From assembly GCA_963663225.1 (NCBI GenBank), contig OY760142.1, forward strand, positions 416,001-480,000: 64,000 nt of DNA, given 5' to 3'. The position numbers were made by a program, and so were the translations under genes. Position 1 is the first letter of the stretch. Every line of letters starts with the position of its first letter. Below the pieces are notes generated by a model. The model did no database searches and was not told the origin of the DNA. It worked only from the letters and a program-made list of their open reading frames with translations. Of this stretch, positions 15,264 to 46,602 are shown piece after piece. The stretch is from Nitrospirota bacterium (lineage in GTDB: Bacteria > Nitrospirota > UBA9217).

Positions 15264-16382
15264 CTATTTTTTCCCTGTCGCAATAAAAACTGGACATACA
15301 CCAGCACTGTAGTTGGCACTAAGTGACAACGCTCCGGTAAAATTATTTATTTGATAGAGAGAAACAGTACCTGCGTAATTCGCTACATAGACGAACGTGC
15401 CGATTGGGTCTATGGTGGTTATGGAAATAGGATATGTACCAGCGCTAAAAGGGCTCCCGGTAATTTCTGTTAATGCACCGGTTGCGGAGTCTATCCTATA
15501 CGCCGAAATATTATTTGAATTAAAATTCGCTACATAGACGAACGTGCCGGTCGGGTCTACGGTTACTGATTGAGGAGACGTACCGGCGCTAAATGGGCTG
15601 CCGGTAATTGCTGTTAATGCACCGGTTGTGGAGTCTATCGCGTACGCGGAAACAGTATTTGGACCAGCATTCGCCACATAGACGAACTTGCCGCTCGGGT
15701 CTACGGTTACTGAATATGGACTATCTCCAGTGCTAAACGGACTGCCGGTAATTGCTGTCAATGCACCGGTTGTGGAATTTATCGTATACGCGGAAATATT
15801 ATTTGAGTCATAATTCGCCGCATAGACGAACTTGCCGCTCGGGTCTACGGTTATTGACCGAGGACCATTTCCAGCACTAAACGGACTGCTGGTAATTGCT
15901 GTTAATGCACCGGTTGTGGAATTTATCGTATACGCGGAAATATTACTTGTTAAAGCATTTCCTACATAGAGGAACTTGCCGGTCGGGTCTACGGTTACTG
16001 AATGAGGGTTAGTATAAGCACCAGCATCAAACGGGCTCCCAGTAATTTCTGTTAATGCGCCGGTTGTGGAATTTATCGTATACGCGGAAATATTATTTGT
16101 GCCCAAGTTCGCCACATAGACGAACTTGCCGGTCGGGTCTACGATTACTGATTGAGGAATCATACCAGCGCTAAACGGACTGCCGGTAATTGCTGTTAAT
16201 GCACCGGTTTTGGAATTTATCGTATACGCGGAAATATTATATGAGTCTTGATTCGCCACATAGGCAAAATATTTTGAACTGCTGCTGGTACTGCTGCTGG
16301 TACTACCGCCGCCGTTGCTGCAGCTTAATATGCCGATTAAAACAAAAATACCAATAAGGCTGTAGAGAAAGTTTTTTTTCAT
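15264..16382 (-). CDS. lactonase-family 7-bladed beta-propeller lipoprotein built from near-identical tandem repeats
   Basis: Lipobox ILSC, Ser/Gly linker, about 7 repeats of 46-48 aa (KFVYVAN..NISAYTINSTTGALTAITGSPFSAG..P.SVTVDP) also visible at DNA level. Confidence 0.9.
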   Translation of the reverse strand: MKKNFLYSLIGIFVLIGILSCSNGGGSTSSSTSSSSKYFAYVANQDSYNISAYTINSKTGALTAITGSPFSAGMIPQSVIVDPTGKFVYVANLGTNNISAYTINSTTGALTEITGSPFDAGAYTNPHSVTVDPTGKFLYVGNALTSNISAYTINSTTGALTAITSSPFSAGNGPRSITVDPSGKFVYAANYDSNNISAYTINSTTGALTAITGSPFSTGDSPYSVTVDPSGKFVYVANAGPNTVSAYAIDSTTGALTAITGSPFSAGTSPQSVTVDPTGTFVYVANFNSNNISAYRIDSATGALTEITGSPFSAGTYPISITTIDPIGTFVYVANYAGTVSLYQINNFTGALSLSANYSAGVCPVFIATGKK

Positions 16383-25764: not shown

Positions 25765-26196
25765 TTACTTTATTAAATTTTCGTGAGCTTTATGTAAGAC
25801 CTTATTGCATATTTCCATTTCTTGCTCTGTAATCCCTCTCCGCAACTGCTGAAAGATCTTTTCCGCCAAAATTATTACTCCATGTATTACGCTCTCACCT
25901 CGCTTCGTAATATAAATGATTTTTTCTCGGCCATCCAAGGAGTTTTTCTTGCGGAGTATAAGTTTTTGAGATTCTAAGCCAACCGCAAGATGAGCCATTG
26001 TTGTTTTATCTTTGAACAGCTTCTGAGCGAGCTCCCACTGCGATTGACCGTTTTGCTCCCATACCTGAACTAGAACCGATATGTGCTCAGCCGTAATTTT
26101 GTAGCTATGTTGTGTCAATTCTTGGTTTAACTTCTTCTGAAAAGCCCTTGATAAAAGAGTTGCCTGAATAGTAATCGATCCTTTAGTTGTATACAT
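25765..26196 (-). CDS. MarR-family transcriptional regulator
   Basis: SQWELAQKLFKDKTTM...LESQKLI...DGREKIIYITKRG winged helix. Confidence 0.9.
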   Translation of the reverse strand: MYTTKGSITIQATLLSRAFQKKLNQELTQHSYKITAEHISVLVQVWEQNGQSQWELAQKLFKDKTTMAHLAVGLESQKLILRKKNSLDGREKIIYITKRGESVIHGVIILAEKIFQQLRRGITEQEMEICNKVLHKAHENLIK

Positions 26197-26603
26197 TAAA
26201 TATACCTTTTTGTGCAGTTTTATGCAACAAAAAATTGCAAAAAATCACCTCGCAACATACTGATTTTATGGAGATAACTCAGGTATTTCGCTAAAAGTAT
26301 CTATTTATTTAACATTCGAGACACTTAAGCTTTTTCTGAATATTACCTGCTTTTTTACTCCAAAAGCTGTTCGCTAAATTTCTGTCCATCTGGGGTTCAA
26401 TTTAATTGGGGAAAAAATGAAGATAAGGTACGATAAAAAAGTTTAAATTCGCGAAATTATACACTTAAGGTGTGCATAACAAAAGGGCTTTTTTTTGATA
26501 TGTTTTCAATTTTAATAATCGGCTTCAAATAAGATAATACGGCTTTCTAGTCATTTACTTGTCATGTACTAATATCTACGCTGAAGGAGGCCTTAACCGC
26601 AAA

Positions 26604-27251
26604 TTAATCTTTAAATATATATTGAAAATTCGTAGCCGCTAGCAAATCTCCCATATTCGATTCGATGTGATTTCTCATTTTTTTTTCGGCCATTGCCGGA
26701 TTTTCAGCCAAAATGGCGTCAATTATCTCTATATGCTCTTCCAAAGAACGATTTATCCGTCCCGGAATATAGCCGGCCGGATTTAAAAGTCGTATGCTCT
26801 GATTGTCAAGCTTATTCATAATGCCTATCAGACGTTTATTTCCAGTCGAATCAATTATAAGCCGGTGGAGATCGTGGATATCATTGGTGTACACTTGTTT
26901 TTTTTGTTCAAGTAATTTAACTGTAATCTTTCTGATTTCCTTGACTTTTTCTTTTTCAATCCGTTTCACACACACTGACGCTGCAAAAGGTTCAAAAAGA
27001 AGCCGTAACTGAAAAATTTCATAAATATCTACAGGTGAAATGGTGGTCACTATGGCGCGATTATTGATAACAGTAATTAATCCTTCGGATTCGAGCCGGA
27101 TGAGTGCTTCGCGAACTGGTGTGCGGCTCATATTAAGGTTATCCACTATCCACTTTTCCGTAACAGGGGAACCAGGCTTTAATTCAGATTTAAAAATGGC
27201 ATTCCTTATGTAATCGTAAGCGACTTGACCGTTATTTGATGTTTTCCGCAA
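26604..27251 (-). CDS. GntR/FCD-family regulator, paralog 1 (downstream of a cobalamin riboswitch)
   Basis: MSRTPVREALIRLESEGL HTH; FCD motifs HDLH..TGN, SLEEH, HIESN; TTG start with AGGAG. Confidence 0.93.
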   Translation of the reverse strand: MRKTSNNGQVAYDYIRNAIFKSELKPGSPVTEKWIVDNLNMSRTPVREALIRLESEGLITVINNRAIVTTISPVDIYEIFQLRLLFEPFAASVCVKRIEKEKVKEIRKITVKLLEQKKQVYTNDIHDLHRLIIDSTGNKRLIGIMNKLDNQSIRLLNPAGYIPGRINRSLEEHIEIIDAILAENPAMAEKKMRNHIESNMGDLLAATNFQYIFKD

Positions 27252-27277
27252 GATAATCTCCTACTATATAAATACCA

Positions 27278-27318
27278 TAAATAAAAATCCCCAATCTTCA
27301 TAATCAAGATTGGGGATT
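27278..27318 (-). terminator. riboswitch expression-platform terminator
   Basis: 13-bp stem AATCCCCAATCTT/AAGATTGGGGATT followed by TTTTATTT on the minus strand. Confidence 0.8.
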
Positions 27319-27375
27319 AATCGACAAAAACGTTAATCCACACAACATCTCAACGCCGAAGAGTGTGTGAAAACA

Positions 27376-27540
27376 TAAAGGCCGGTCTTCTGGCTTTCCC
27401 TTCTCTACTTACCTTCCCAGCCTTGTTCCAAGCCAGTGATAAGAGCATAGCAGAGAACTTTGATCCCCTACTGCGGGATCGGGATTACAGCGGCGGGTCC
27501 GCTCCCGATTCTCACGGGATTCCCATAACCTAAATGTCGT
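27376..27540 (-). ncRNA. cobalamin riboswitch upstream of GntR paralog 1
   Basis: Minus strand GGGAATCCCGTGAGAATCGGGAGCGGACCCGCCGCTGTAA...CACTGG...GGGAAGG...AGCCAGAAGACCGGCC (B12 box). Confidence 0.92.
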
Positions 27541-27639
27541 AAAACATATTTATAATTTTATAACATAAAACGGCTCAAAAGTCAAAGAATTCTCTCTCGA
27601 CTGAAAAGAATGATTTGACGCTTGCTGGTATTTTTCGCG

Positions 27640-28812
27640 TTAATTATTTTCGTTCAATTCCGGATATTTGATTAAAAAACTCAGCAAACACCCGATTATT
27701 GGAAGGACAATAATAAAGTGCAGTGCAGAAAGGACGCTATAATTATCCGCAATTACGCCTAAAAGAGTTACTCCCAGTCCTCCTGTTCCAATGGAAAAAC
27801 CTACCGTAAGTCCTGATGCCATGCCAATGTTGTTCGGCAGGAGGCGCTGAGCCATGGCGACAGTAATGGAAAATGAGGAAATAAGGACTACACCGAGAAT
27901 ACCGAATACAATAAACAAATAAACTCCATTGGCATAAAATATAAGTGGCAGTACGAGAGCTGTTAACGCTAATGAGACAATCATAAAGCGCTTATGGCCC
28001 CATCGGTCTGCGAGTCGTGCGCCGAGAAGCGTGCCGATAACCGAACTCAGCAGAAACACTGATACAAGTTTTCCCGCATACATCGGATCTCCCTTTAAGT
28101 AGTCCTTGTAATAAAAAGGAATATACGTTAAAAGACCGAACTGGGTCCATGATCTCATAATGACAACGCCGATAATATAAGAAAGAGCTATATAGGCTCT
28201 CCTGTTACAATTGCTTTTTATAGCAGTTTTTTTGCTTATACTATGCGCCCTCGTTGGGATTGTAATAGCTTTCCAATAAACGCTTATAAGTACTATAAAA
28301 ATAAAGGCGGGGATAATCATTACAGGAAGATATATCAGACCATAATGCGTAATTACATAAATAGTAAGAAATGGTCCGATCGCAAATCCTAGATTTCCAC
28401 CAACCGAAAATACCGATAAACCTGTGGCTATCTTTTCTCCGGTGAAATAGGAAGCGGTTTTAAAACCCTCAGGATGATAAGCAGAAATGCCGAGACCGCT
28501 AAGAAGAACAAGCATAAGAACAACGATATACTGAGAAGGAAAAATTACAAGGGAAAAACCCAATCCGGCAAAGAGGCATCCTAGTGGCAAAAAAACAGGC
28601 TTTTCTTTTTTGTCCGAAATCATGCCGAAGAACGGCTGAATAACCGACGAGGCAATGTGCGACGCAATAAGAATAAATCCGGCCATCGTATACGAAAGAT
28701 TAAGTTTATCTTTCAGAAACGGTAATACTGCGATCAAGGCTCCATTGTATATGTCCACCACGCAATGCCCAAAGGACAGCAGTATAAGCTCTTTTAGCCT
28801 GAATTTATTCAT
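27640..28812 (-). CDS. MFS transporter, Fsr (fosmidomycin-resistance)-like
   Basis: GHCVVDIY, SSVIQPFFG..SDK, AYHPEG, FSVGGNLG; 12 TM. Confidence 0.88.
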   Translation of the reverse strand: MNKFRLKELILLSFGHCVVDIYNGALIAVLPFLKDKLNLSYTMAGFILIASHIASSVIQPFFGMISDKKEKPVFLPLGCLFAGLGFSLVIFPSQYIVVLMLVLLSGLGISAYHPEGFKTASYFTGEKIATGLSVFSVGGNLGFAIGPFLTIYVITHYGLIYLPVMIIPAFIFIVLISVYWKAITIPTRAHSISKKTAIKSNCNRRAYIALSYIIGVVIMRSWTQFGLLTYIPFYYKDYLKGDPMYAGKLVSVFLLSSVIGTLLGARLADRWGHKRFMIVSLALTALVLPLIFYANGVYLFIVFGILGVVLISSFSITVAMAQRLLPNNIGMASGLTVGFSIGTGGLGVTLLGVIADNYSVLSALHFIIVLPIIGCLLSFLIKYPELNENN

Positions 28813-29706: not shown

Positions 29707-30366
29707 TCACCTCAAAATCGTGTACGTAATCGGGACTTCGATCCAGCCATTCACATGCGGCAGCGGGCCCGCACGATAGACAGTTCTGACAGATGCAGCA
29801 TCAAGGATTTTTGACCCCGAGCTTTTTATGATCTCCACCCTCTCTACATTACCCGAGTGCAACACCCAGAACCGGACCCGCACGACCCCTTCGATCCCCC
29901 GTTCACGCGCGATGCGGGGATATGTTTTCGCCCGCTCCAGCGCAGCCTGGATCAGCTGCCACTGATCAGGCGACAGAACACCGGGCCGGGAACCCGGTTC
30001 ACCGCCTGTGTCCTGTGGTATTGTTTTCGTATCTGATACGCCCTCGTTCTCTGGCGTGCCTGATGCAGCCGCTGTTGACGCAGTTACCACATGAAGGGTT
30101 TCATTCGCGTCGGCTTTTTGCAACGGTTCGGAATCGCGTACTGCGGCAGACGGTGGCCTTGACTGAATGTTCCGGGATCGGGACGCGGTCTGCTCGATTT
30201 TTCCGGCAATCTGATCTGCCCCTATGAGCGTCACCGTAATCACATTGGATTTCCCGAGCAGATGCCCGTAGTGCGCGAATGCCAGCGCGCTGCCGAACAG
30301 CAGAATATGTATTCCGAGAGAAGCAATGAGTGAGCGCTGAAATGTCATAGAATTTACTTTTAACAT
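29707..30366 (-). CDS. tonB: TonB energy transducer
   Basis: N-terminal TM SLGIH; C-terminal YPRIARERGIEGVVRV...SSGSKILDAA. Confidence 0.9.
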   Translation of the reverse strand: MLKVNSMTFQRSLIASLGIHILLFGSALAFAHYGHLLGKSNVITVTLIGADQIAGKIEQTASRSRNIQSRPPSAAVRDSEPLQKADANETLHVVTASTAAASGTPENEGVSDTKTIPQDTGGEPGSRPGVLSPDQWQLIQAALERAKTYPRIARERGIEGVVRVRFWVLHSGNVERVEIIKSSGSKILDAASVRTVYRAGPLPHVNGWIEVPITYTILR

Positions 30367-30447
30367 TATAGCCTGCAGACTGTTTTTAGCAGTCCCGGGT
30401 GAAAATGTCTTCCCGCACGATTCGTGCGGGAAGACCTATAGCCTGTT

Positions 30448-32316
30448 CTAGAATCTGACTGTCAACCCTCCATACACCTCCGTAGGTGGCATGGGATATC
30501 CTGCGGAGACGTTGTAGGACCGATTGGTAATGTTTTTGATTCCTGCGAACAAATCGGCCTTGGCATACTTCCACAATTCAACTGGTTGAAGAATCTTCAT
30601 GTCCAGCACGCCGTAGTGGCTCGTCGGGTTTGATGTCCCGAGTGATTGGACCCAGTAGTTTCTGACGTATCTGCCTTCAAGATAAATATTTGTCTTAACC
30701 TTCGGGACCGTATAGCTGATATAGCTTTTAATCTGTTCCGCGGGCGCACCGGCAACATAGTCTCCCGTGTCCAAGTCCCGTGTGTCCATTCCCGTATAAT
30801 TGACTCCCCACACCAGTGCGTCAAAGAACGTGGCTTTTGCTTCCGCTTCGAATCCCGTGATACGCGCCCTGCTGAAGTTTGTCGGTTTGTAAACAAAATT
30901 ATTGTCCGGCATCCAGACGATCAGGTTCCTTGCATGGCGTTCAAAAACCGTGAACTTGATTGAACGGCCTTTTCCCAGCGGCTGCTCAATCCCTCCTTCA
31001 TACTCCGCTGACTTCTCAGGCTTGAGGTCGGGGTTCCCGGCTGTCCAAGGCGTGGCCGGCCAGTACAAATCGTTGAACGTAGGCGCCCGGTATGATTCTC
31101 CGGCAGAGGCCCTGATGATTGTCCCGGTGGGGCCTACAAGATAACGGGCGCTCGCCTTCGGGCTGAAATTGTCCCCGAAGACCGAATGGTTGTCATATCT
31201 GCCGCCTACAACGAGAATGAATGCATCTCCGATTGAAATCTCATCCTGAAGGTACAGCGCGCGCTGCGATGCGGAGTGTTCTCCCAAAGAACCCTGCAGG
31301 GGGTCCTGGCTGTCCACATGATCAGCATGAACTTCCCCTCCCACGGTCAGAACATTTGACAGGAACGACAGAGGGGCCGTACGCCAGTTCGTCTGCAGTT
31401 CCGAGTTTATTCCGGATAGGATGTGCTTGCTGTCATCACTGAACGGGTTCTTGAACAGCATTTTGTTCCGGTACATGTTCAGCGTTGCCCGCATATCCAT
31501 ATCTTTTGTAAAGGCGCTCCGGAAGGTAAGCCCCATGTCCGCGTTCCGGTCCCATTGCCGTGCTAAGGGAGTCAGGTACGTTAAGGAACCCGGCGCTCCG
31601 TTCTCCTTTTCTATATAATTCGCGGCAAGCTCAAGCGATGTATTCGTCGAAAAGTCATACCCGATCTTCCCGCTCGTTGCTGTTTTGTCATAATCGCTGT
31701 TTACGCGATACCCGCCTGCTTTCTCCTTGTTCGCAGAGATGTTGTAGTAAAAATTTCCGATTTTGCTTCCATTCCCTGCACCGAGGGTCCAGTAGCCGTG
31801 ACTGCCGCCAGCGCTGGTTATGGATGATTCCAATCCGGTCGGTTTTTTGGTTATAATATTGATCACACCGCCGAGCGCATCCGCGCCGTACAGGGCCGAC
31901 GACGGGCCGCGCACAATCTCTATCCGCTCGATATTCTCAACCGGCACCGGCAGAATGTTCAAATCAAATCCGCCCGACTGCGACGAATTCAGCCGCCTGC
32001 CGTCCAGAAGCACCAGAACCTGCGAAACCGTGGAGCCGCGCAAACTGACTTCAACCGCGGAACCCGGCGTGCCGTTGTCATGCACATCAGCGCTTGCGGT
32101 CCGCTCTATTACCTGTGCCGCGGTCGTTGCCCCGGATTTTCTGATTTCATCGGCAGTGATCACCGTGACCGACTGCGTAACATCCTGCAAGTTCTTTTCC
32201 GTCTTTGTTGCGGTAACGACAATTTCTTTCAGCTGCGTGCCGGCCTCTTCCGCCAAAACCATGGGCGGACAGAGCATCAGGCCGCACAGCACGGCTGCTG
32301 CGAAACGACTGTTCAT
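30448..32316 (-). CDS. btuB: TonB-dependent cobalamin receptor
   Basis: TonB box EIVVTAT, plug IERIEIVRGPSSALYG, RAPTFNDLY, C-terminal Phe; B12 riboswitch upstream. Confidence 0.9.
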   Translation of the reverse strand: MNSRFAAAVLCGLMLCPPMVLAEEAGTQLKEIVVTATKTEKNLQDVTQSVTVITADEIRKSGATTAAQVIERTASADVHDNGTPGSAVEVSLRGSTVSQVLVLLDGRRLNSSQSGGFDLNILPVPVENIERIEIVRGPSSALYGADALGGVINIITKKPTGLESSITSAGGSHGYWTLGAGNGSKIGNFYYNISANKEKAGGYRVNSDYDKTATSGKIGYDFSTNTSLELAANYIEKENGAPGSLTYLTPLARQWDRNADMGLTFRSAFTKDMDMRATLNMYRNKMLFKNPFSDDSKHILSGINSELQTNWRTAPLSFLSNVLTVGGEVHADHVDSQDPLQGSLGEHSASQRALYLQDEISIGDAFILVVGGRYDNHSVFGDNFSPKASARYLVGPTGTIIRASAGESYRAPTFNDLYWPATPWTAGNPDLKPEKSAEYEGGIEQPLGKGRSIKFTVFERHARNLIVWMPDNNFVYKPTNFSRARITGFEAEAKATFFDALVWGVNYTGMDTRDLDTGDYVAGAPAEQIKSYISYTVPKVKTNIYLEGRYVRNYWVQSLGTSNPTSHYGVLDMKILQPVELWKYAKADLFAGIKNITNRSYNVSAGYPMPPTEVYGGLTVRF

Positions 32317-32344
32317 TATTGTTATCTCCTTCCGTCGAGGTTGT

Positions 32345-32490
32345 GGGAATGCGAGGTTTCCTGGCTTCGGACTTCCTACTTGCCGGCCTTCCCATCCGGA
32401 CTTTTCCGGACAGTGGCACGCTCGGCGTTCGTTTCCTTCACAGTTGCGCGACAGCAGGGGAATTGCACCCCTTTCCGCTCCAGCATTCCC
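32345..32490 (-). ncRNA. cobalamin riboswitch upstream of btuB
   Basis: P1-like GGGAATGC/GCATTCCC; GGAAAGGGGTGCAATTCCCC..GCGCAACTGTG...CCACTG...GGGAAGG...AGCCAGGAAACC; directly abuts the SD, suggesting translational control. Confidence 0.9.
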
Positions 32491-32582
32491 AGGGTTATAA
32501 ATAGCTGCTTACCGTCATCGTGTTTTTCCTTTATTCTCTCCTTTGGCCGCTCACCTCCCTTCAAGATTGTGCGAAAACATCT

Positions 32583-33356
32583 TTAAAAATTATGTTCGTA
32601 TGTGATGTGCAGGCCGGAACCGCTTTTCTTGATATCAACGTCCACATCAAATGCCTGCTGTATCCGTTCGCGGGTCAAGACGCTCCCGGGATCTCCGGCG
32701 CTGATGATGCTTCCTTCCTTGATCAGCATGACTTTTTTGAACTGGAGTGCCATATTGATGTCATGGAGCGCCATTACGATGGAAATATGCTGCCTCTCGC
32801 AGAGGCTTTTCAGCAATTTCACCAGCTCAATCTGGTACTTGATATCCAGGTTCGCGAGCGGTTCGTCGAGCAGCAGCAGTCCGGCACCCTGCACGAGCGT
32901 CATGGCAATAAACGTCCGTCTCCGTTCGCCGCCGCTCAAGTCAATGAGCCGCGACCCGGCCTTCTCACGTAGCCCGACCATGTCAAGAGCCTCATCAATG
33001 TCCATGACCGGCGGAATATCGTACGGATAGAGCCCCATGCTTACCAGGTCACGGACCGTAAACGGCACGCTGATATCGAGCGCCTGCGGAAGATAGCTGA
33101 TCAGCTTTGCCCGGTCCCGCCCCTTCTCCCGCAGAAGATCGTTGCCCCAGAGGGCAATGCTGCCTGACGACGGCCGCAAAAGCCCGCTTGCCAGCTTCAG
33201 GATCGTGGACTTGCCCGACCCGTTCGCGCCAAGTAAACCGATGAAATCTCCCTCGCCTATGGAAAAAGACAGGTCGCGGATAAGGAGTTTGTCTTTCTCA
33301 TAGGAAAAGCAGACGTTTTTAAGATCCAGAATATGCACGTCAGAGGTTGAGGACAT
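32583..33356 (-). CDS. btuD: cobalamin/iron-siderophore ABC transporter ATPase
   Basis: GANGSGKS, LSGGE, LLLDEP, ALHD; in a riboswitch-led operon. Confidence 0.88.
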   Translation of the reverse strand: MSSTSDVHILDLKNVCFSYEKDKLLIRDLSFSIGEGDFIGLLGANGSGKSTILKLASGLLRPSSGSIALWGNDLLREKGRDRAKLISYLPQALDISVPFTVRDLVSMGLYPYDIPPVMDIDEALDMVGLREKAGSRLIDLSGGERRRTFIAMTLVQGAGLLLLDEPLANLDIKYQIELVKLLKSLCERQHISIVMALHDINMALQFKKVMLIKEGSIISAGDPGSVLTRERIQQAFDVDVDIKKSGSGLHITYEHNF

Positions 33357-34305
33357 CTTTTCTCCTGAGAAGATACAAAAAATAAGGCGCGCCGATGATC
33401 GCCGTGACCATGCCTGCCGGAAGTTCCGCAGGCGGCAAGACAGACCGGCTGGCCAGATCAGCGATGCACAGAAGGGCGCCGCCTCCCAGGGCGGACGCCG
33501 GGATCAGCGCGCGGCTGTCCGCGCCGAAGAAAAACCGCATGATATGCGGCATCAAAAGACCGATAAAACCGATCATGCCGCCGAGCGACACGGACGCCGC
33601 TGTCAGAAGCCCTACCGAAGTAAACAGAATGAACCGCTCGCGCTGGGGTGCAAAACCGAGGCTATGGGCCAGTTCATCTCCGAGCATGAGCGCATTAAGA
33701 GCCTTTGCCCTGCAAAGGGAAATGGCCACGCCGGCAAATACCAGCACGACTCCGTACGGTATTCGCTGCCAGTCCGACATGGACAGGTCCCCGAATATCC
33801 AGAGCATTGCCCGCCGCAATCCTTCATCAGTCGATAAACTCATCAAAAGCATCAACAGCGCGGAAAACAAGAAGCTCAGGCCCACGCCGGCAAGCAGCAA
33901 TCGCTCAGGCCAAAAACCGCCCCGCTTAAGCCCCATGACGCCCACAATCCCTCCCGTGATGATTGCACCAGAAAAAGCGAGCACAGGCACGGTAAAGCTG
34001 CCGAGGAACGACAATCCGCCGATAATGCCGAGGGCCGCCAAGAGCGATGCACCGCTGGATATTCCCAGAATGTACGGATCAGCCAGGGGATTCCTTAAAA
34101 TACCCTGCAGCACCGCACCGGACGCGCCTAAAGCCATACCCATGAGAAACGCAACCAGAACGCGCGGCAGCCGGATGTCCATCAGTATCTCCTGGTCCAC
34201 ATCGCTGAGCGCACCGGGCAGAATCATGTTCGGCCCCAGAAAGAGCGCACAGCAAAAAACAATCAGCACAAGAACAGCTAAAAACGTCATTTTTACTTGA
34301 GGCAT
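33340..34305 (-). CDS. btuC: FecCD-family ABC permease (cobalamin)
   Basis: IRLPR, LRNPLADPYILGISSGA, IGFIGLLMPH, GAPYF. Confidence 0.88.
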   Translation of the reverse strand: MPQVKMTFLAVLVLIVFCCALFLGPNMILPGALSDVDQEILMDIRLPRVLVAFLMGMALGASGAVLQGILRNPLADPYILGISSGASLLAALGIIGGLSFLGSFTVPVLAFSGAIITGGIVGVMGLKRGGFWPERLLLAGVGLSFLFSALLMLLMSLSTDEGLRRAMLWIFGDLSMSDWQRIPYGVVLVFAGVAISLCRAKALNALMLGDELAHSLGFAPQRERFILFTSVGLLTAASVSLGGMIGFIGLLMPHIMRFFFGADSRALIPASALGGGALLCIADLASRSVLPPAELPAGMVTAIIGAPYFLYLLRRKDVLNL

Positions 34306-35144
34306 GCCGAAAGCTCCTTAATTCCCGGAACAATCCGCGGACCAAGGCGGTACAGATTGTCCCCGACATAGCACACGGCGCCGTTTTTGACCGCGGGTGT
34401 AGATGCCATCCGGGCAAGCACTCCGCGCGACACCGCGCGCATGTCCATCCCCGATCCTTTGCCGATCACGATCTTGTCAGGGGGATGCCGGACCACTTCC
34501 TCGAGAGAGTATTTCGGATAGGCGCTCTTCGCTTTTCCCGCAATGTTCTCGTACTCTAGGAGATTAATGACATCATTCATCGCGGTACGGGGGCCCGCAA
34601 CAATAAGCGGTTCAGGCCAGACGATGAAAAGCACCCTTCCCTTCCTCTTATTATTGCCGCCTTCGAAAGCGTCTTCTCGTCCCAGCGCTCCTTCGATTTC
34701 ACGTGCAAGCGCTTCCGCCCTTTCCGGCACCCCGAGCACCGTGCCGAGCTGTCTGATCCCCTGCGGAAGCTCGGAAATCCTGCGCGCCGTGAATACCACA
34801 ATCGGAACACGCAATGATCGAAGCCTTTCCGCAAACTCCCGGGGATTGCCGTCTGTGGTCATGACTACCACATCCGGCTTGAGCGACACGACAGCCTCAA
34901 GCGACGGATTGGACATGCCCCCGATCCGGGGTTTTTTCTTGACCGCCTCCGGATAGTCGCAAAAACTCGTGACCCCCACGATGTCCTTCTCCAGACCTAA
35001 TGCAAACAAAATCTCCGTCACGTTCGGCGCAAGGGAGATGATCCGTTTCGGGGGAACGGCAGTTTCCGCGCCGGAAAGACCCGGACAGGCCGTCGAAACC
35101 GCAATAAAAAGAATGAGAGTATATTTTTTAATTGTGCTCATCAC
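34293..35144 (-). CDS. btuF: cobalamin-binding periplasmic protein
   Basis: PKRIISLAPNVTEILFALG, VGVTSFCDYP, RLGPRI; riboswitch upstream. Confidence 0.88.
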   Translation of the reverse strand: MMSTIKKYTLILFIAVSTACPGLSGAETAVPPKRIISLAPNVTEILFALGLEKDIVGVTSFCDYPEAVKKKPRIGGMSNPSLEAVVSLKPDVVVMTTDGNPREFAERLRSLRVPIVVFTARRISELPQGIRQLGTVLGVPERAEALAREIEGALGREDAFEGGNNKRKGRVLFIVWPEPLIVAGPRTAMNDVINLLEYENIAGKAKSAYPKYSLEEVVRHPPDKIVIGKGSGMDMRAVSRGVLARMASTPAVKNGAVCYVGDNLYRLGPRIVPGIKELSACLK

Positions 35145-35173
35145 GGACTAGAACAGAACGCCTGCTTCCGCTC

Positions 35174-35213
35174 AAAATAAAAATCCCCAGTCTTCTCGAA
35201 AAGACTGGGGATT
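35174..35213 (-). terminator. riboswitch expression-platform terminator
   Basis: Stem AATCCCCAGTCTT/AAGACTGGGGATT plus T run; homologous to 27278-27318. Confidence 0.8.
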
Positions 35214-35267
35214 AATACGGAATATTAACCCACACATGGTCTTAACGCCGAAGACTGTGCGAGAACA

Positions 35268-35435
35268 TACAGGCAGGTTTTCTGGCTCTCCCTCCCTGCC
35301 TGCCTTCCCAGCCCCATAGGGCCAGTGGCGTTTGTCCGGCAGAGAATTATGGCTTCGCTCTACGCAAAGCCGGGATCACAGCGGCGGGTCCGCTCCCGAT
35401 TCTCACGGGATTCCCTTCTCCTGTGTGTGGTCGCG
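35268..35435 (-). ncRNA. cobalamin riboswitch upstream of btuF
   Basis: Minus strand AAGGGAATCCCGTGAGAATCGGGAGCGGACCCGCCGCTGTGA...GCCACTGG...GGGAAGG...AGCCAGAAAACCTGCC. Confidence 0.92.
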
Positions 35436-35466
35436 TATGATTATTTTTCCTTATACCATACGGCAC

Positions 35467-37227
35467 CTAAAAAGACAGCTCTTTAAGAAAAAGGTCTTCG
35501 AAACTTTTATCTCCAGCAAGCTCAATATATTGAATATTTTCCGCCACCTCTTGGGCGATTTTTCTCTCTTTAACAGATAATAGGGCATTTTGAGCCCCTA
35601 CGCCTGCAGCATTGCCCACAGGAACTATTTTTTCACAAAGGTCATCAGGCAACAACTTGATGCTTTTTAAGCTCTCGAATTTTAAATACATTCCGAATGC
35701 TCCCGCCAAAATTACTTTTGTGACGTCGGCTGTCTGCACTCCTGCTTTACGAAGCAATATTCTGATTCCCGTAGAGATGGCACTTTTTGCAAGCTGCAGT
35801 TTGCGAATATCTTGCTGTGTTATATAAATACTGCGTCTATCTGCTGTCTGCTCTTCTGGAACAAGCAGAAAAGCCAACGATCCCTCCTGTTCGATAATTC
35901 TTTTTTGTTGCAATTCGGAGGCATCGGAGGAAACAAGTCTGCCTGAAAAATCTATATTCTTATTTTGCAATAAACCGGCGACAGCATCAACAAGACCCGA
36001 ACCACATATACCTTGAGGTCTTACATCACCAATTACATGAAAGGAAACTTCCTTATTATTTATCTGTACACTGTCAATTGCACCGGCTTGAGCGCGCATG
36101 CCGCATGATATTGAATAACCTTCAAAAGCGGGTCCCGCCGCTGTCGAACAAGCCCAAACTTTTCCATTTGCAGCAAGAACAATTTCTCCGTTAGTACCGA
36201 TATCTATCGCGAGCACTATATCTTTTTCTTCCCATAACGGATGAGCCAACAGCATTCCAAGAGTATCTGCTCCGACAAAACCGGATACGCCCGGCAACCA
36301 GAAGATATTTGCCACGTTATTGACGAGAATGCCTGTTTTATATGAGCGATAGGAGACGGCATTGCGAATAATCGGCGTATAGGGATATCGTCCGATTGAA
36401 ACGGGCTGAACGCCCAGGAACAAATGTTCCATGCAGGGATTGCCAACAAAAACCAGGTCGTAGATGTCCTCACGGCTTATATTTGCCTGATCATTCGCTT
36501 TATCAATTAATCCGTTTATACAATCCACAATGGATGACTGGAGCCGTTCAAGTCCTGAGGGAACTTCTGTGGCGTAGGTGATGCGGGAAATAACGTCTGA
36601 TCCGTATTCAACCTGCGGGTTTAAAGAAGAAACCGCGGCACACAGGCGGCCATTCACAAGATTAAACAAATACCCTGCTATTGTCGTTGTTCCGATATCG
36701 AAGGCCATTCCGTAGAGGTTCGGACGTGTATCTCCTCGTTCTATCGCCACTATTTCATTATTTTGTATGACAGCAGTAAAAGGAATTTTTTCATGCACCA
36801 TCAAGGAAAACGACAACAGAATATCGATCTCTGCAATTATTCCTCGGCCGACATGAATTCCCGATCTCAAACAGAGATCTTCCCAAGTAAGCATGACGCT
36901 ATCAAACGACGGTGGGAAATATATCTTTTTAACTACAGGTGATAATTCGACTTTCTTTCCGCAGCCTTCTTGCAGACAAACAATACCCTTCTGACCACCC
37001 TTAAACAGATCTATTGCAATGTTTGATTCAACCGCAGTCTGGCAAGCCAGGACATCATTCCATTGCCCGTTACTCTTGATCCTTACCTGACACTTGCGGC
37101 AAACTCCTTTTTTTCCACAGGGGAAATCATGCTTCATAAGTCCTGCATTTAGCAACGCATCAATAAGAAGCGTCCCTTGCGGGGCAGAAATTTTATTGCC
37201 GTCACTATCTGTTATAGTAAAAACCAC
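35467..37227 (-). CDS. RACo/RamA-type ATP-dependent reductive activator of corrinoid proteins (N-terminal 2Fe-2S, ASKHA/DUF4445)
   Basis: CGKKGVCRKC...ACQ 2Fe-2S ligands; FDIGTTT, DIGTNGE, AGPAFEG, GICGSG, AGAFG. Confidence 0.93.
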   Translation of the reverse strand: MVFTITDSDGNKISAPQGTLLIDALLNAGLMKHDFPCGKKGVCRKCQVRIKSNGQWNDVLACQTAVESNIAIDLFKGGQKGIVCLQEGCGKKVELSPVVKKIYFPPSFDSVMLTWEDLCLRSGIHVGRGIIAEIDILLSFSLMVHEKIPFTAVIQNNEIVAIERGDTRPNLYGMAFDIGTTTIAGYLFNLVNGRLCAAVSSLNPQVEYGSDVISRITYATEVPSGLERLQSSIVDCINGLIDKANDQANISREDIYDLVFVGNPCMEHLFLGVQPVSIGRYPYTPIIRNAVSYRSYKTGILVNNVANIFWLPGVSGFVGADTLGMLLAHPLWEEKDIVLAIDIGTNGEIVLAANGKVWACSTAAGPAFEGYSISCGMRAQAGAIDSVQINNKEVSFHVIGDVRPQGICGSGLVDAVAGLLQNKNIDFSGRLVSSDASELQQKRIIEQEGSLAFLLVPEEQTADRRSIYITQQDIRKLQLAKSAISTGIRILLRKAGVQTADVTKVILAGAFGMYLKFESLKSIKLLPDDLCEKIVPVGNAAGVGAQNALLSVKERKIAQEVAENIQYIELAGDKSFEDLFLKELSF

Positions 37228-37413
37228 ATCTCACCTTTTCACGTTGGTTCTCTTATTATAGAGTGAAAACAACTATACACCGAAAACTGGATATATTATA
37301 TATAGATGTGGCTTTAGTCCACTTTCTATTTTTCATTGGCGTACCAAATTTACTTGATTATAAGAATTTATCCGATTTATGTTTACAATTTTACGTATCG
37401 TCCAGAGAATATA

Positions 37414-38097
37414 TTAACTGCATAAAAACTGATCTTCCGTAACTTCACCCCATGGAGGGATAATAATAAAATCTTCTTTTTCGTACGGGCCATGCATAAT
37501 TTTTTGGAAGTATTCTTGGCTCCCGAGAAACTCTGAATATTCTTTACCAAAAATCGCGCAATTTTCTTTGGTTCTGGCTTTCAAGCGTTCCGTATCGCCG
37601 ACCCCGGTATTAATAAACGATATATGCGTATAGTGCTGAAGTTGTTTTTTAACTACTCTAGTTGCCATTTCAATACCGTGCTTCGGAGCGTAGTGATTAT
37701 TGAGAATGCCCAACGGGTCTACCTCTGTAGCTATCCACCCCGGGGTCAAGTAATACGTCCCGGGCCTCGCTCGAAAATTCTCACGATAGGCCTTCTGTGA
37801 CCCCATAAAAATCGTAATACAGTCATGACACCGGGGAATCACGAGGTCCTGGCAACCTGCTTTTATTCCTTTAATTCCGCCGGAACAGAATCCATATCCC
37901 AGTACGACCCTGTTTGCTGAATTTCCAATACAATTTATTTCCTCCTGGATTAAGGAAGTCATTTTTTTAGGATTTTCGTGCAATCCCTGACCAAGAAAAC
38001 GTACCTGCACATCAGCGTCTTTCGCTACCATTTCAAGCTCGTGCTGAAAAATCCCACAAGCGATAACTACGGTTTTATAAAGTGGCTGTTTTGTCAT
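37414..38097 (-). CDS. DUF1638 protein (commonly next to corrinoid methyltransferase genes)
   Basis: IACG, GLHENP, LGYGFCSGG, IPRCHDCI, GTYYLTPGW. Confidence 0.87.
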   Translation of the reverse strand: MTKQPLYKTVVIACGIFQHELEMVAKDADVQVRFLGQGLHENPKKMTSLIQEEINCIGNSANRVVLGYGFCSGGIKGIKAGCQDLVIPRCHDCITIFMGSQKAYRENFRARPGTYYLTPGWIATEVDPLGILNNHYAPKHGIEMATRVVKKQLQHYTHISFINTGVGDTERLKARTKENCAIFGKEYSEFLGSQEYFQKIMHGPYEKEDFIIIPPWGEVTEDQFLCS

Positions 38098-38130
38098 TTT
38101 ACATGCTAGGGATTTTATTATTAATTAAAT

Positions 38131-38240
38131 CGGGCGACTATGGAGACAATGCAGGCGATATTTTAGTTAATGTCCTAGAAGAAATTACCGTTGTTGAAAA
38201 ACATCGCTGTTTTTTCTGCTTTGCATCTCATAGTCGCCCG
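38131..38240. repeat. long imperfect inverted repeat (about 110 nt)
   Basis: CGGGCGACTATG...CATAGTCGCCCG perfect 12-bp outer arms, with further imperfect inner pairing (GCGATATTTT/AAAACATCGC). Confidence 0.7.
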
Positions 38241-38282
38241 TGATACTGAACAACTTATCGTATTTAGCTGATAATTAATTTA

Positions 38283-39677
38283 TTACTTAACCCCTAACGC
38301 CGGATTCGGGTAATTTCTGTTAAATACATGACTTACGAGCATCACAGCGAGAGGAGTACATAATGCTATATACATGTTGTCAATTCCGAAAGGATTTCCC
38401 ATGGCAAACCATAGCGTCGTAAATATTACACTCAACACCAAGCCAATGGTTGCACCTGCTTTATTTCCAATTTGCGGGCCATAGAACATAAACAGAGCAA
38501 TAACCGCAACACTGGTGCGCAGCGCTCTCGCAAAAAAAACCGTCTTGAGCAATCCAGGCACATACAGCGCAAATGGTATGGGAAGCAATCCAAGTATTAT
38601 CGCTAATACTCTCACAATTACCATTTGGCGCTTCTCATCGGGCTTTGCCAGCGGAATAATGAAATCTCGCATCACTAAAGCGGTTGCACCAAGATTACAT
38701 GCCAGAATTGTCACAAATGCCACTGCCAAAATTCCTGACGTAACAAGACCACCTAACCATGGATTCATATATCTGAGAAACTCGGGTAATGCCTGAACAC
38801 TCTTGATCGTTGGAAATAGCACCTTCGCTGCCAATCCAATGTAAGCCGCAATAAATCCTAACGGGAGAAGCCAGAAACTTGCAAAGATACTAGCTTTTTT
38901 GGCATCTTTGGCACTGCTCAAGGAACTTATACTTTGGATCACATACTGAGTGGAAAAAACTGCCCCTATGTTTCCGACTGTCCAGGCTATAATTTGTGGA
39001 ATTCCAATGCCTGACATATCAAAAAAGGAATCAGGCAATACTGAAACCGTCAGGTTTCGCTCATGGAGCAAACCCCACGCTACCAGTGCAGTGACAATAA
39101 TCGCAACATATTTTACAAAAAAATGAATTAAGTTCGCAAATCCGACGCCCCGAATACCGCCTGCAGCGACGCTGGCCGTTGCTAAAAGTGAAATTATGAA
39201 AACCGCGGGCGTCGTGGAAATGCCCAACACAGATGCAACCACAACAGCGCCGGCGGTGTAAGCAACGACATTAACGGTTATTAAGGCATAGACCATTATG
39301 GCCGAAACTACCATTCGAGCGTTATCACCATATTTTTTGCTGATAATCCCCGATATCGTATATTCGCCTGTTTCGTTGTATTTACCAGCCAAAAGGTATG
39401 CATACAAGAGGAAACCTACAGCCAGCGATATAAAGTTCCACGAAGCAGAGATGCCTTTCTCAAATGCTACCTGAGATGTTCCCAACGTTGACGCTGATGC
39501 TATAAACTCAGAGACCAGAAGAATGCCGATAATATATACACCCATTTGATTCTTTGCGCTCATAAAGCTATTCGTATTTTTTGCATATTTGACGGACCAC
39601 ATGCCAACGAGCGTAGTTATTATCAGATAAACGACTGCTATGCCAAATATTATACCTGCACCATCTACCGCATTCAT
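38283..39677 (-). CDS. sodium:solute symporter (SSS) family transporter
   Basis: About 13 TM; GEYTISG..KKYG, AGGIRGVGFAN; GGAGGAGG RBS before MNAVD. Confidence 0.9.
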   Translation of the reverse strand: MNAVDGAGIIFGIAVVYLIITTLVGMWSVKYAKNTNSFMSAKNQMGVYIIGILLVSEFIASASTLGTSQVAFEKGISASWNFISLAVGFLLYAYLLAGKYNETGEYTISGIISKKYGDNARMVVSAIMVYALITVNVVAYTAGAVVVASVLGISTTPAVFIISLLATASVAAGGIRGVGFANLIHFFVKYVAIIVTALVAWGLLHERNLTVSVLPDSFFDMSGIGIPQIIAWTVGNIGAVFSTQYVIQSISSLSSAKDAKKASIFASFWLLPLGFIAAYIGLAAKVLFPTIKSVQALPEFLRYMNPWLGGLVTSGILAVAFVTILACNLGATALVMRDFIIPLAKPDEKRQMVIVRVLAIILGLLPIPFALYVPGLLKTVFFARALRTSVAVIALFMFYGPQIGNKAGATIGLVLSVIFTTLWFAMGNPFGIDNMYIALCTPLAVMLVSHVFNRNYPNPALGVK

Positions 39678-39964
39678 GAGTAACCTCCTCCACATCCATA
39701 AGGATGGTTCTGCTAGCGTATTATGCTAACAAAGTGTCGTATTGGACTACTCTTTAGCTGTTTGCAGATCGATACTTGCATTAATTAATAAAAAAATTGC
39801 AATACAGTACAAATAACCCTTGGGAAAGACTTTTCCACAACGAACGAAACTAATATTTTAAATACTCCTGATAGCCATTGCAACAATACCGTGATTCCGG
39901 TCCCTTTTTAAAATCCTATTTACGTCCTCCTTTCCCTATAAAATTATACTCTTAATATATTTAA

Positions 39965-40003
39965 TGTGTACCTAATGTATACAAAATGTATTAGTTTGTC
40001 AAG
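39965..40003 (-). promoter_or_regulatory. sigma70 promoter (TTGACA-N17-TACATT) overlapped by a TGTATACA operator
   Basis: TGTGTACCTAATGTATACAAAATGTATTAGTTTGTCAAG; 32 of 39 positions identical to 44763-44801. Confidence 0.75.
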
Positions 40004-40289
40004 GTTAAAATCGTCACTAAAGTTTTTTGATTTCTCTCGTTTGATTGACATTTGGGGGCATAATACGGCAGGGGCCAGACTCTTGGCAGGGCAATATGAT
40101 GTCTTTAAGCTAGTAAAACTAGTTTTTTACTTTCATACAAGTATTGTTCGCTTACGATGCATGATTATTTTTTACGCATGTATGGTACGAGAAGAGAAAT
40201 TCGGCAGGCAGGATTTGAAGTGAATTTTGACAATATCTGAGACACCAGTACGAATGTCCAGAAGACTTTTGAGATGTTGCCGAAGGATT

Positions 40290-40934
40290 TTATTGCTTAA
40301 ATATGTGGTGGTAATTTGCAGTATCCATTAAATCATGCATATTAGACTCGATGTGATAACGCATCTTATTTGAAGCCATTACGGGATCACCTGACAGAAT
40401 GGCATCAATAATCTGGAGGTGCTCTTCTAAAGAGCGATTTACTCTTCCAGGAATATATTCAGACGGATTGAGCAGCCGCACGATTTGGTTATTGAGGTTG
40501 TTCATAATAGTTATCAATCTTCTGTTGCCGGTGGCCTCAATAATAAGATGGTGCAAATCGTGAATATTCTCCGTATACGGTTGTTTTTTTTGTTCAAGAA
40601 GTTTTTTGGTTATTTTTTTTATTTCAAGAAGATCTTCTTTCTTAATTCTATTAACACATACTGCAGCTGCATAAGGCTCAAGCAGAAGACGTAGTTGAAA
40701 AATTTCATGAATATCAACGGGCGAAACAGTCGTTACTATCGCGCGATTATTGATAACGGTAATTAATCCTTCAGATTCGAGTCGAATCAACGCTTCGCGC
40801 ACAGGTGTGCGACTCATGTCGAGATTATCTACAAGCCACTTTTCGGTCACCGGGGAACCAGGTTTTAAGTCAGACTTGTAAATGGCATTTCTGATATAAT
40901 CATATGCAATTTTTACATTATTTTGACGTTTCAT
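40290..40934 (-). CDS. GntR/FCD-family regulator, paralog 2
   Basis: Same HTH (MSRTPVREALIRLESEGL) and FCD motifs as paralogs 1 and 3. Confidence 0.93.
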   Translation of the reverse strand: MKRQNNVKIAYDYIRNAIYKSDLKPGSPVTEKWLVDNLDMSRTPVREALIRLESEGLITVINNRAIVTTVSPVDIHEIFQLRLLLEPYAAAVCVNRIKKEDLLEIKKITKKLLEQKKQPYTENIHDLHHLIIEATGNRRLITIMNNLNNQIVRLLNPSEYIPGRVNRSLEEHLQIIDAILSGDPVMASNKMRYHIESNMHDLMDTANYHHIFKQ

Positions 40935-41089
40935 CTTTTGTCTTCACCTATGTACTAATGTAGCAAAATCATATGTATTTTTCAATAACAATTGCTTTCA
41001 ATATTTTACCGGTAGGCAATGCGCCTACCTTATCCGGTTGTTATCGTACACAATGGTTTTAAAAAGCCCGCATGCATTTCTAATCTGTT

Positions 41090-41128
41090 AAAAAAAAAGA
41101 AGCAACGTCCGAAATTGCACGTTGCTTC
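41090..41128 (-). terminator. intrinsic terminator closing the methyltransferase operon
   Basis: Minus strand GAAGCAACGT-loop-ACGTTGCTTC followed by T9. Confidence 0.8.
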
Positions 41129-41181
41129 ACAATAGTTACAGAACATTTTGGAGGCTAGAATCGTCTATCCGCTCGATTCAC

Positions 41182-42555: not shown

Positions 42556-42569
42556 GTAATCCTCCGTCC

Positions 42570-43238
42570 TTATTCAACCGATAATAGTTTTTTTGCCACT
42601 TCTACTGCTTCAATGGCGTCTTTTCCGTATCCATCAGCACCAATTTTGGCGGCATATTCTTTTGTGACAGGTCCCCCTCCAATCATTACTTTAAAACGAT
42701 CCCGAAGCCCCATACTTGCCAGGTCGTCAATAACTTCTCTCTGGTAAGGCATTGTGGTCGTTAAAAGCGAGGACAGTGCTATCATATCGGCATTTAGGTC
42801 TTTAGCTTTTTCAATAAATGTGGCACTCGGAACATCGACGCCAAGGTCTACAACCTGGAATCCGCCGGCTTTCAACATCGTGGATACGAGATTTTTGCCT
42901 ACGCTGTGCACATCGGCCTGCACCGTTCCTACGATGATAATTTTTTTCCTTTGAGCGTCCGCTTTTGATATGTTTTTTTCCAGCACTTTGCTTACCGTAT
43001 CCATCAGGTCGCCGGATATGACCAATTGCGGCAAATAGTATTCGCCTGAATCGAATTTCTCTCCTACGACGATGGCGGCATCTGCAATGGCATACCGAAT
43101 TGCCACTGATGGGTCAACACCAGCCGCCAGCACTTTTTCAGCCGCCGCTACTGCGTCTTCTTCATTCAGGTCGATAATCGCCGACTTCAATGCGTCCAGC
43201 AGTGTCCGTTCTTTTTCCGATAATTTTTTCGCATCCAT
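42570..43238 (-). CDS. corrinoid (B12-binding) protein, MtmC/MttC-like
   Basis: GEKFDSGEYYLPQL cap; GTVQADVHSVGKNLV (DxHxxG); SSLLTTT; IGGGP; GADGY. Confidence 0.95.
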   Translation of the reverse strand: MDAKKLSEKERTLLDALKSAIIDLNEEDAVAAAEKVLAAGVDPSVAIRYAIADAAIVVGEKFDSGEYYLPQLVISGDLMDTVSKVLEKNISKADAQRKKIIIVGTVQADVHSVGKNLVSTMLKAGGFQVVDLGVDVPSATFIEKAKDLNADMIALSSLLTTTMPYQREVIDDLASMGLRDRFKVMIGGGPVTKEYAAKIGADGYGKDAIEAVEVAKKLLSVE

Positions 43239-43256
43239 AATTCAAACCCTCCTGTT

Positions 43257-44639: not shown

Positions 44640-44762
44640 TCAGATCCTCCTTTTAGATTTCAAATTTTACTAAAAGTGCATTGAACAGTTCATATATCCT
44701 ATCCTGTAGATATGTTCATTCACCCCCCCTCTATTTAAATCGGCCCAGCGCGTTACACATAT

Positions 44763-44801
44763 TGTGTACTTAATGTATACATAAAGTATGTAATTGTCAA
44801 G
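44763..44801 (-). promoter_or_regulatory. sigma70 promoter (TTGACA-N17-TACATT) overlapped by a TGTATACA operator
   Basis: TGTGTACTTAATGTATACATAAAGTATGTAATTGTCAAG upstream of the methyltransferase operon. Confidence 0.75.
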
Positions 44802-45045
44802 CAAAAAAATACTGCTCTTTTGCAGGCAAAACCTATAGTTTTCTAGTATCTTATATCTGGTTTTTTTGGTAGCAGAGAGACAGTTGTGCGACTTGGAGAA
44901 TTACAGACGGCATTTGATGGGTTATTTTAGAGCGGATGAGATAACAGGGAGCGGCGTCTGTGCAATAGTTGTTCTTTCCAAGATGTTAACAAAGAATATG
45001 AGCGACTTGCGATAATTCCACGACGGCTTTATCCTATCCAAGCGC

Positions 45046-45618: not shown

Positions 45619-45672
45619 TAGATTCTCTCCATGTTTGTGCAATATTTTCGCGGAATATAAAGAAATCTATTT

Positions 45673-46581: not shown

Positions 46582-46602
46582 TTCTTATACCTCCGCAGGC
46601 CG

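Follow-up and report, generated by a model that had tools for sequence, protein, structure and literature searches.

A riboswitch is nearly always interpreted as direct feedback on genes for transport or biosynthesis. To our knowledge, there are few natural cases in which an OFF switch comes to serve a cofactor-dependent pathway as an ON signal, and these work through RNA intermediaries. In Listeria monocytogenes, as outlined in PMC8079631, a B12 OFF riboswitch controls negative regulators of B12-dependent pathways, and the riboswitch-controlled RNAs AspocR and Rli55 restrain the propanediol and ethanolamine pathways until B12 is present. Here we analyzed a 64,000-nucleotide (nt) stretch of a Nitrospirota bacterium (contig OY760142.1, positions 416,001 to 480,000; hereafter the window, whose numbering is used throughout unless genome positions are named), in which a cobalamin riboswitch lies directly upstream of gntR1, a gene for a GntR/FCD regulator. 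The genome is closed and 98.99% complete, and it has only three close GntR/FCD copies, gntR1, gntR2 and gntR3, whose products are called P1, P2 and P3. A sequence-only reading of this DNA had proposed that the riboswitch and gntR1 form an inverter of the B12 signal, in which an extra repressor made in low B12 shuts the promoters of a B12-dependent pathway, which would then need both substrate and cofactor. In the open-access literature searched, we found no account of a GntR-type repressor gene preceded by a cobalamin riboswitch.

In the AspocR/PocR case (Mellin et al., 2013, via PMC8079631), transcription of a negative regulator ends early at a B12 OFF riboswitch, and the pathway needs both substrate and cofactor; the gntR1 locus would follow the same logic. 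As far as that account goes, the Listeria regulator is an antisense RNA against the activator PocR, whereas here it is a protein, a paralogous repressor with the pathway promoters as its presumed direct targets. Rli55 (Mellin, 2014, cited in PMC8079631) is described there as a further instance of an OFF riboswitch leading to activation of a B12-dependent pathway via a riboswitch-controlled inhibitor, as we propose for gntR1. The SAM-I riboswitch/small RNA (sRNA)-SahR system of Desulfovibrio vulgaris (bioRxiv 10.1101/803072) is alike in that a riboswitch element sets the level of a pathway transcription factor. It differs, within the description that this preprint gives, in having a trans-acting sRNA on the regulator mRNA, another ligand and no paralog duplication. 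By analogy, the gntR1 system appears to work like the AspocR/Rli55 kind but to be no member of it: its regulator is a 215-residue protein under purifying selection instead of a non-coding RNA, while its anatomy and the homology of its expression platform are compatible with a B12 riboswitch that terminates a negative regulator. The sRNA Rli55/EutX, which DebRoy reportedly described in 2014, is said to sequester the regulator EutV. There the inhibitor, an RNA, serves as a decoy that binds an antiterminator protein, and no duplicated transcription factor takes part, unlike the arrangement at gntR1. The inverter logic is thus not new; what would be new here is a protein repressor derived from a duplicated pathway regulator, together with a copied importer leader.

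Riboswitches were searched for with Infernal against Rfam model RF00174 (gathering score, 31.5 bits). The gntR1 aptamer was found on the minus strand at 27363-27548 with 72.0 bits (E-value 8.3e-16), spanning the whole model (positions 1-189 of 189) and ending 8 nt beyond the 27540 of the sequence-only reading. Its B12-box region, AGCCAGAAGACCGGCC, aligned at high posterior probability with the model consensus AGCCAGGAGACCuGCC. There are three RF00174 matches in the window, all on the minus strand, and six in the genome. On the same strand, folding placed a P13-like regulatory hairpin with the loop UUCGGCGUU directly after aptamer helix P1 (27341-27369), followed by a predicted antiterminator (27303-27354). 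An intrinsic terminator at 27276-27318, detected by the terminator scan, consists of a 13-base-pair stem (27318-27286) with a 7-nt loop and the T-rich tail TTTATTTATG, and it is the sole terminator-like site within 26000-28000. The open reading frame of gntR1 (26604-27251, minus strand; 215 residues, assigned by Pfam) begins with TTG, 6 nt after a Shine-Dalgarno sequence, AGGAG (27258-27262, minus strand). A candidate sigma-70 promoter of the leader was read from the sequence at 27557-27585 on the minus strand, with TTGACT (27585-27580), a 17-nt spacer and TATAAA (27562-27557), and in the alignment it falls on the promoter region of the btuF leader; our consensus promoter scan demands T at position 6 of the -10 box and so does not list TTGACT-17-TATAAA. 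The distance from the T-tail to the TTG codon is just 24 nt, and the scan found no minus-strand promoter-like site between the aptamer and the gntR1 start; therefore, transcription of gntR1 must traverse the switch. These results bear out the earlier claim of a full B12 riboswitch with an intrinsic terminator directly before the GntR paralog, and we consider it highly probable that the riboswitch is real and gates gntR1.

The gntR1 leader has a paralog in the window. Two further cobalamin riboswitches on the minus strand precede a TonB-dependent receptor gene (32334-32526, RF00174) and a btuFCD-type ABC importer (35255-35485, RF00174, 74.3 bits), and the btuFCD leader (35163-35485, minus strand; RF00174 and alignment) carries the same expression platform and is the likely source type of the gntR1 leader. 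The btuB and btuFCD leaders share the aptamer family with gntR1 and a homologous platform in this genome, and differ in that the gntR1 leader regulates a transcription factor rather than a transport or biosynthesis gene. The gntR1 and btuFCD leaders are 74.2% identical over 252 nt, from the promoter through the terminator T-run, where the homology ends. RNAalifold predicted 76 pairs for the two leaders, of which none was broken and 11 were compensatory (a covariation set of two distinct leaders only, since the other btuF leader in the genome is a copy of the first). Both leaders have the hairpin with its loop, a small GGRUUAA/UUAAUCC hairpin and the terminator. In the regulatory hairpin, one pair is compensatory, C-G in gntR1 and G-C in btuF (alignment columns 189/206), and the btuF leader retains all 13 terminator pairs, one through a compensatory change from A-U to G-C.

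The predicted antiterminator joins the 3' half of the hairpin and GGAUUAA with the whole 5' arm of the terminator. In the nascent RNA, where the terminator 3' arm is not yet made, two nearly isoenergetic folds were predicted, the hairpin plus the small hairpin versus the long antiterminator (-13.3 versus -13.0 kcal/mol in gntR1; -15.5 versus -14.9 kcal/mol in the btuF leader). The btuF leader keeps 16 of the 20 antiterminator pairs, including all 14 inner ones (columns 201/246 to 219/232), one of which is compensatory (U-A to C-G), and one position covaries in antiterminator and terminator alike (U/A/U in gntR1, C/G/C in btuF). Hairpin, antiterminator and terminator are thus present in both leaders as predicted, mutually exclusive structures. 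The hairpin loop and the aptamer loop are identical in the two leaders and give no covariation signal for or against kissing-loop pairing. These results suggest that the gntR1 leader is a copied importer cassette still under structural selection.

Importer leaders with a cobalamin riboswitch are classic OFF switches, and in known cobalamin switches ligand binding stabilizes the regulatory hairpin. In our folding model, the layout of the gntR1 leader is what one would see if the aptamer, once ligand is bound, held the hairpin and thereby freed the terminator. OFF polarity is likely because this layout, the ligand-stabilized hairpins of known switches and the importer context of the sister leader all point the same way. 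The reverse polarity, with the ligand favoring the antiterminator and P1 made at high B12, could draw on the 3' strand of aptamer helix P1, which extends the regulatory hairpin in some predicted folds and makes the competition ambiguous from sequence alone. However, the same platform stands before the btuFCD importer, where ON logic would be maladaptive, and the antiterminator uses just that 3' half of the hairpin which the ligand would be expected to lock; we regard an ON switch as scarcely credible.

P1 matched the Pfam domains PF00392 (GntR, 7.4e-16) and PF07729 (FCD, 1.1e-19), and its AlphaFold2 (AF2) model, with a predicted local distance difference test (pLDDT) score of 90.4, has an all-helical C-terminal domain. 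P1 is 75% identical over its full length to P2 (gntR2, 40290-40934, minus strand; Pfam and tree), the regulator of the corrinoid module, and 67% identical to P3 (gntR3, 53522-54169, plus strand; Pfam and paralog comparison). The 30-residue DNA-reading stretch of the winged helix-turn-helix (wHTH) domain, MSRTPVREALIRLESEGLITVINNRAIVTT, is the same letter for letter in P1 and P2, as the sequence-only reading had stated, and P3 differs from it at three residues. A tree of 58 family members pairs P1 with P2 as its sister (support 95/91) within an eight-member clade, their terminal branches being 0.24 and 0.17, respectively. The ratio of nonsynonymous to synonymous substitution rates (dN/dS) between P1 and P2 was 0.068, and 0.042 in the wHTH domain, with dS saturated at about 2.5. 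Departures from the family consensus of at least 80% number two in P1 (I152S, unique to P1, and L174I), three in P2 and nine in P3.

The metal-binding residues of TM0439 are given as H134, H174 and H196 in PMC7674646. P1 residues H129, H173 and H195 align with positions 129, 169 and 191 of the 3fms chain, that is, with these three histidines; H129 and H173 are invariant and H195 is near-invariant in 45 family sequences. P1 is thus like the FadR-subfamily regulators TM0439, DgoR and LldR in its wHTH and all-helical FCD domains, its histidine triad and a predicted promoter-overlapping operator of the GTM-N0-1-KAC type, and unlike them in belonging to a small, environmental group with one copy under riboswitch control. 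The protein comparisons indicate that P1 is a maintained, selected duplicate and not debris, and that it very probably functions as a regulator, binding an effector and sharing the DNA specificity of P2.

The octamer TGTATACA occurred six times in the window against 0.69 expected, and it was present at all three places that had been named as operators. Genome-wide, it occurred 33 times against about 52 expected from base composition, and the 8-mer alone is therefore neither specific nor enriched. Exact copies of the extended 19-mer TGTATACATTARGTACACA were confined to 39965-39983 and 44763-44781, both within the block at 35379-54186 that we call the island. The first copy (TGTATACATTAGGTACACA) lies in a TTGACA-17-TACATT promoter (39965-40002, minus strand) before the genes for an SSF transporter, a DUF1638 protein and a RACo-type activase, and the second (TGTATACATTAAGTACACA) lies in another TTGACA-17-TACATT promoter (44763-44800, minus strand) before an mtmB-like gene, a corrinoid protein gene and a second mtmB-like gene. 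The core TACATTA-N0-2-GTACA occurred three times in the window against 0.01 expected, and its third copy, the operator-like TACATTAGTACA at 40951-40962, precedes gntR2 in a TTGAAA-17-TACATT promoter (40951-40985, minus strand). By motif and promoter scans (TTGACA/TTGAAA-17-TACATT), all three copies of this core overlap the TACATT -10 box, which is the geometry expected of a repressor. We found no TACATTA-type operator motif at the gntR1 promoter. The DNA-reading heads are identical, and because of this P1 would occupy P2-type operators; we think it rather likely that P1 shares the operators of P2.

The third named place, 52938-53005, turned out to be of a different architecture. It holds four GTATAC boxes in a near-perfect palindrome (52942-52973; motif scan) before the glycyl-radical/aldolase operon, and is probably a P3 site. 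Control by P1 appears less likely here because the architecture differs and the site adjoins the P3 module, P3 having a different reading head. The operator consensus of the FadR subfamily is quoted as GTM-N0-1-KAC in PMC4494728, and the GTATAC cores at the island promoters match this palindromic consensus.

P1 might instead have other targets, such as the marR/two-component genes, the MFS transporter and carbonic anhydrase genes or B12-related genes, with the shared reading head merely inherited. A three-mismatch copy of the 19-mer, TGTATACATTAAATATACC, lies at 26188-26206 over the start codon and ribosome-binding site of marR and is largely conserved in a congener of this bacterium, a sister species; this copy may serve in cross-regulation or be no more than a coincidence of coding. 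A metagenomic locus (L021, 1-6804) also points this way, with a subfamily member 68% identical to P1 between genes of the cob type (after ThiC-like, CbiB and aminotransferase genes) and a cobalamin riboswitch with a TonB-dependent receptor gene. The marR site is, however, mostly coding and ribosome-binding sequence, and in a related strain gntR1 does not adjoin marR. With at most one mismatch, TGTATACA was absent from the promoter regions of gntR1, the MFS gene, the carbonic anhydrase gene, btuB and btuF. The genome-wide search for the 19-mer with at most four mismatches returned six rows: the two island promoters (the second on both strands), the marR site and two weak matches. Targets of this other kind are therefore unlikely to be the reason for P1.

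The P1 subfamily is small, with 53 proteins of at least 40% identity among 5.8 billion, none of them closer to P1 than 77%. In protein searches of 61 relatives and then 401 genomes of the phylum, the subfamily was present only in this genome and in the congener, and a P1-type protein was found in one of the 61 and one of the 401, in this genome alone. A scan of genome contigs for the pairing returned only the congener and two distant GntR genes, without the pairing; in a metagenome scan, none of four family loci had a riboswitch upstream of gntR. The riboswitch-gntR1 unit does recur in contigs from three other studies at 94-99% identity. One contig, of 45,641 nt, spans 26392-27516 with 69 differences; its downstream context is different, marR lying on another contig. 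An 834-nt contig covers 26683-27516 with seven differences. The contigs that reach 27516 take in gntR1, the terminator and the 3' portion of the aptamer. A further contig, of 1,069 nt, spans 27121-28189 with 30 differences and runs from the 5' end of gntR1 across the whole riboswitch into the MFS gene. Because the same pairing stands in contigs of three other studies, the unit is real and kept at strain level, so far confined to one lineage, and it appears to move as a unit. In related genomes, the pairing was thus seen in strain-level relatives but neither in the congener nor in six related loci.

The fusion of riboswitch and gntR1 could also have no adaptive role and be a mere by-product of rearrangement, the region being mobile and duplicated, and the area is indeed mosaic. 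The btu block at 29712-35433, which runs from tonB and btuB through a riboswitch and btuCDF into most of the btuF riboswitch, is matched by a 98.2% segmental duplicate at genome positions 120858-126591. The congener has the island at 96.6% identity against 80-88% in the flanks, and at a different chromosomal position, where it abuts the equivalent of window position 18017 and not 26355, which suggests that the island was recently transferred laterally or relocated; P1 is missing there. Yet a by-product would hardly keep a dN/dS of 0.068, none of 76 leader pairs broken despite 26% divergence, and an intact unit in strains of 94% identity with a different downstream context. Moreover, leader and gene are about equally distant from their respective paralogs (about 73-74%), so the fusion appears to be old. 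We therefore judge an origin without function very unlikely.

Gene families were assigned with Pfam and NCBIfam profile searches. On the minus strand, the order is histidine kinase, marR, gntR1 with its riboswitch, MFS transporter and carbonic anhydrase; then tonB, btuB, riboswitch, btuCDF, riboswitch, RACo-type corrinoid activase, DUF1638, SSF transporter and gntR2; then mtmB-like, MtbC-like corrinoid protein, mtmB-like, isochorismatase-like, glycyl-radical activase and glycyl-radical enzyme; and finally aldolase, acetaldehyde dehydrogenase and MFS transporter, followed by gntR3 on the plus strand. PF02310 proteins are encoded at 42570-43238 and 62651-63949 in the window, and PF02607 was found in 42570-43238 only. 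The operator-bearing promoters precede the genes for the MtbC-like corrinoid protein, the RACo-type activase and the two MtmB-family methyltransferases, which indicates that the target module is B12/corrinoid-dependent.

No match to CbiD (PF01888) or CbiC (PF02570) was found in this closed genome, while CobS is present at genome positions 2707517-2708233 and the btuB/btuFCD block is present in two copies. Because CbiD and CbiC are lacking but CobS and two Btu sets are there, the organism probably depends on imported corrinoid and is a corrinoid salvager. For such an organism, cofactor supply looks like an external variable, and making corrinoid proteins, an activase and two methyltransferases without cofactor looks wasteful.

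The anatomy of the locus, the paralogy of leader and regulator, the structural conservation, the purifying selection and the placement of the operators are shown here, and the following scheme is built on them. The sole route of RNA polymerase to gntR1 would be a B12-OFF cassette of promoter, aptamer, hairpin, antiterminator and terminator, of the same lineage as the btuFCD leader, and gntR1 itself would have been retained for a long time as a duplicate of gntR2, whose product represses the corrinoid-dependent methyltransferase module of the island. Under corrinoid shortage, the 3' half of the hairpin would pair with the 5' arm of the terminator, transcription would read through, and P1 would be made. 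P1 would then sit on P2-type operators, which overlap the -10 boxes at gntR2 and at both corrinoid-module promoters, and would add a layer of repression that B12 alone lifts. When corrinoid is plentiful, the ligand-bound aptamer would hold the hairpin, the terminator would form, and production of P1 would stop. Without P1, the module would be governed only by P2, responsive to the substrate and autoregulated. The net result would be that an OFF riboswitch becomes B12-dependent licensing of a B12-dependent pathway in a corrinoid importer, and we give this reading, B12 licensing of the corrinoid module, a probability of about 0.5. In this scheme, we infer the ligand response, its polarity, the binding of P1 to the operators and the effect on the island. 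The inverter proposed by the sequence-only reading thus gains from the anatomy, the importer-paralog leader, the selected P1 duplicate, the operators overlapping -10 boxes and the import dependence, and loses its third site, which is less likely to be under P1 control.

Several findings weigh against B12 licensing. The covariation comes from just two distinct leaders, and the structure was predicted from those same two. In the six related loci scanned (L016, L017, L020, L021, L022, L023), the gntR homolog has no riboswitch upstream. The congener has P2 and P3 but no P1 (two matches, both of the P2/P3 type, by protein search alone, because its assembly is fragmented at the repeated 37-nt aptamer core), and with an island and no P1 there, the island would work without P1. 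Finally, P1 retains the FCD metal triad, the family-conserved polar residues and all but two of the family-conserved residues, and because the triad and the polar residues are retained, P1 is probably still inducible; if its inducer were that of P2, the gate would be leaky or a mere shift of threshold.

The strictest form of B12 licensing would be a two-input AND gate, in which the importer's B12-OFF cassette is fused to a repressor duplicate whose pocket has diverged (H77Y, Y89F, N147K, N149D, I152S) and which is blind to the substrate. P1 would then be a B12-only veto, acting alone or in P1-P2 heterodimers. With six outgroup sequences as reference, P1 carries 21 derived substitutions and P2 carries 18. 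The P1-derived H77Y, L86F, Y89F and A92S lie on the helix bearing the invariant E87, and N147K, N149D and I152S lie on the helix bearing the near-invariant Q151. We hold this form only tentatively. A milder arrangement has P1 sharing the inducer of P2, possibly in P1-P2 heterodimers, with low B12 only raising the repressor dosage, shifting the inducer threshold and cutting the basal leak, and B12 not obligatory. The retained metal triad with nearly all family-conserved residues, the near equality of P1- and P2-derived substitutions (21 versus 18) and the 75% identity over the full length are in keeping with such tuning. It is less easily squared with H77Y, Y89F, N147K, N149D and the unique I152S on the helices bearing E87 and Q151, by which the effector specificity may have shifted, or with a dS saturated at about 2.5, since long retention of both copies suggests differing functions; we see in it a somewhat doubtful alternative. 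Whether P1 is blind to the inducer of P2 decides between a true AND gate and threshold tuning. A true AND gate would be the first natural protein-based riboswitch inverter for cofactor licensing.

Some further features were noted in and around these genes. The 407-nt spacer after gntR1 (26197-26603) contains a near-palindrome, ACACTTAAGGTGT, beside a minus-strand TATAAT-like box, and no terminator was predicted in it; box and near-palindrome may be the promoter and operator of marR. In L021, the gntR family member stands directly before the cobalamin riboswitch and receptor gene, a second link of the subfamily to a B12 locus, and no terminator was found between the cob-type genes and this member. 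The two genomic copies of the btuF riboswitch differ at the 5' end, the RF00174 match being 231 nt in the window and 185 nt in the other copy. The two MtmB-family (PF05369) proteins, encoded at 41182-42555 and 43257-44639, are full-length with no in-frame stop and so no pyrrolysine codon, and neither matched an NCBIfam model at an E-value of at most 1e-10. GTATAC also occurs at 15784, 15928, 16078 and 16222 (region 15784-16227), with spacings of 144, 150 and 144 nt, inside the open reading frame 15264-16382, which suggests that this frame contains a tandem repeat with a unit of about 48-50 codons.

A riboswitch before a duplicated repressor would be the protein version of an inverter logic otherwise carried by RNA, a design that has been built by hand in synthetic biology. 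It would show how a regulatory circuit can originate when a leader cassette and a regulator that already exist are copied. For this corrinoid-dependent anaerobe, it would also give a handle on an uncharacterized corrinoid methyltransferase island, with P1 and P2 as matched probes for the inducer of the pathway.

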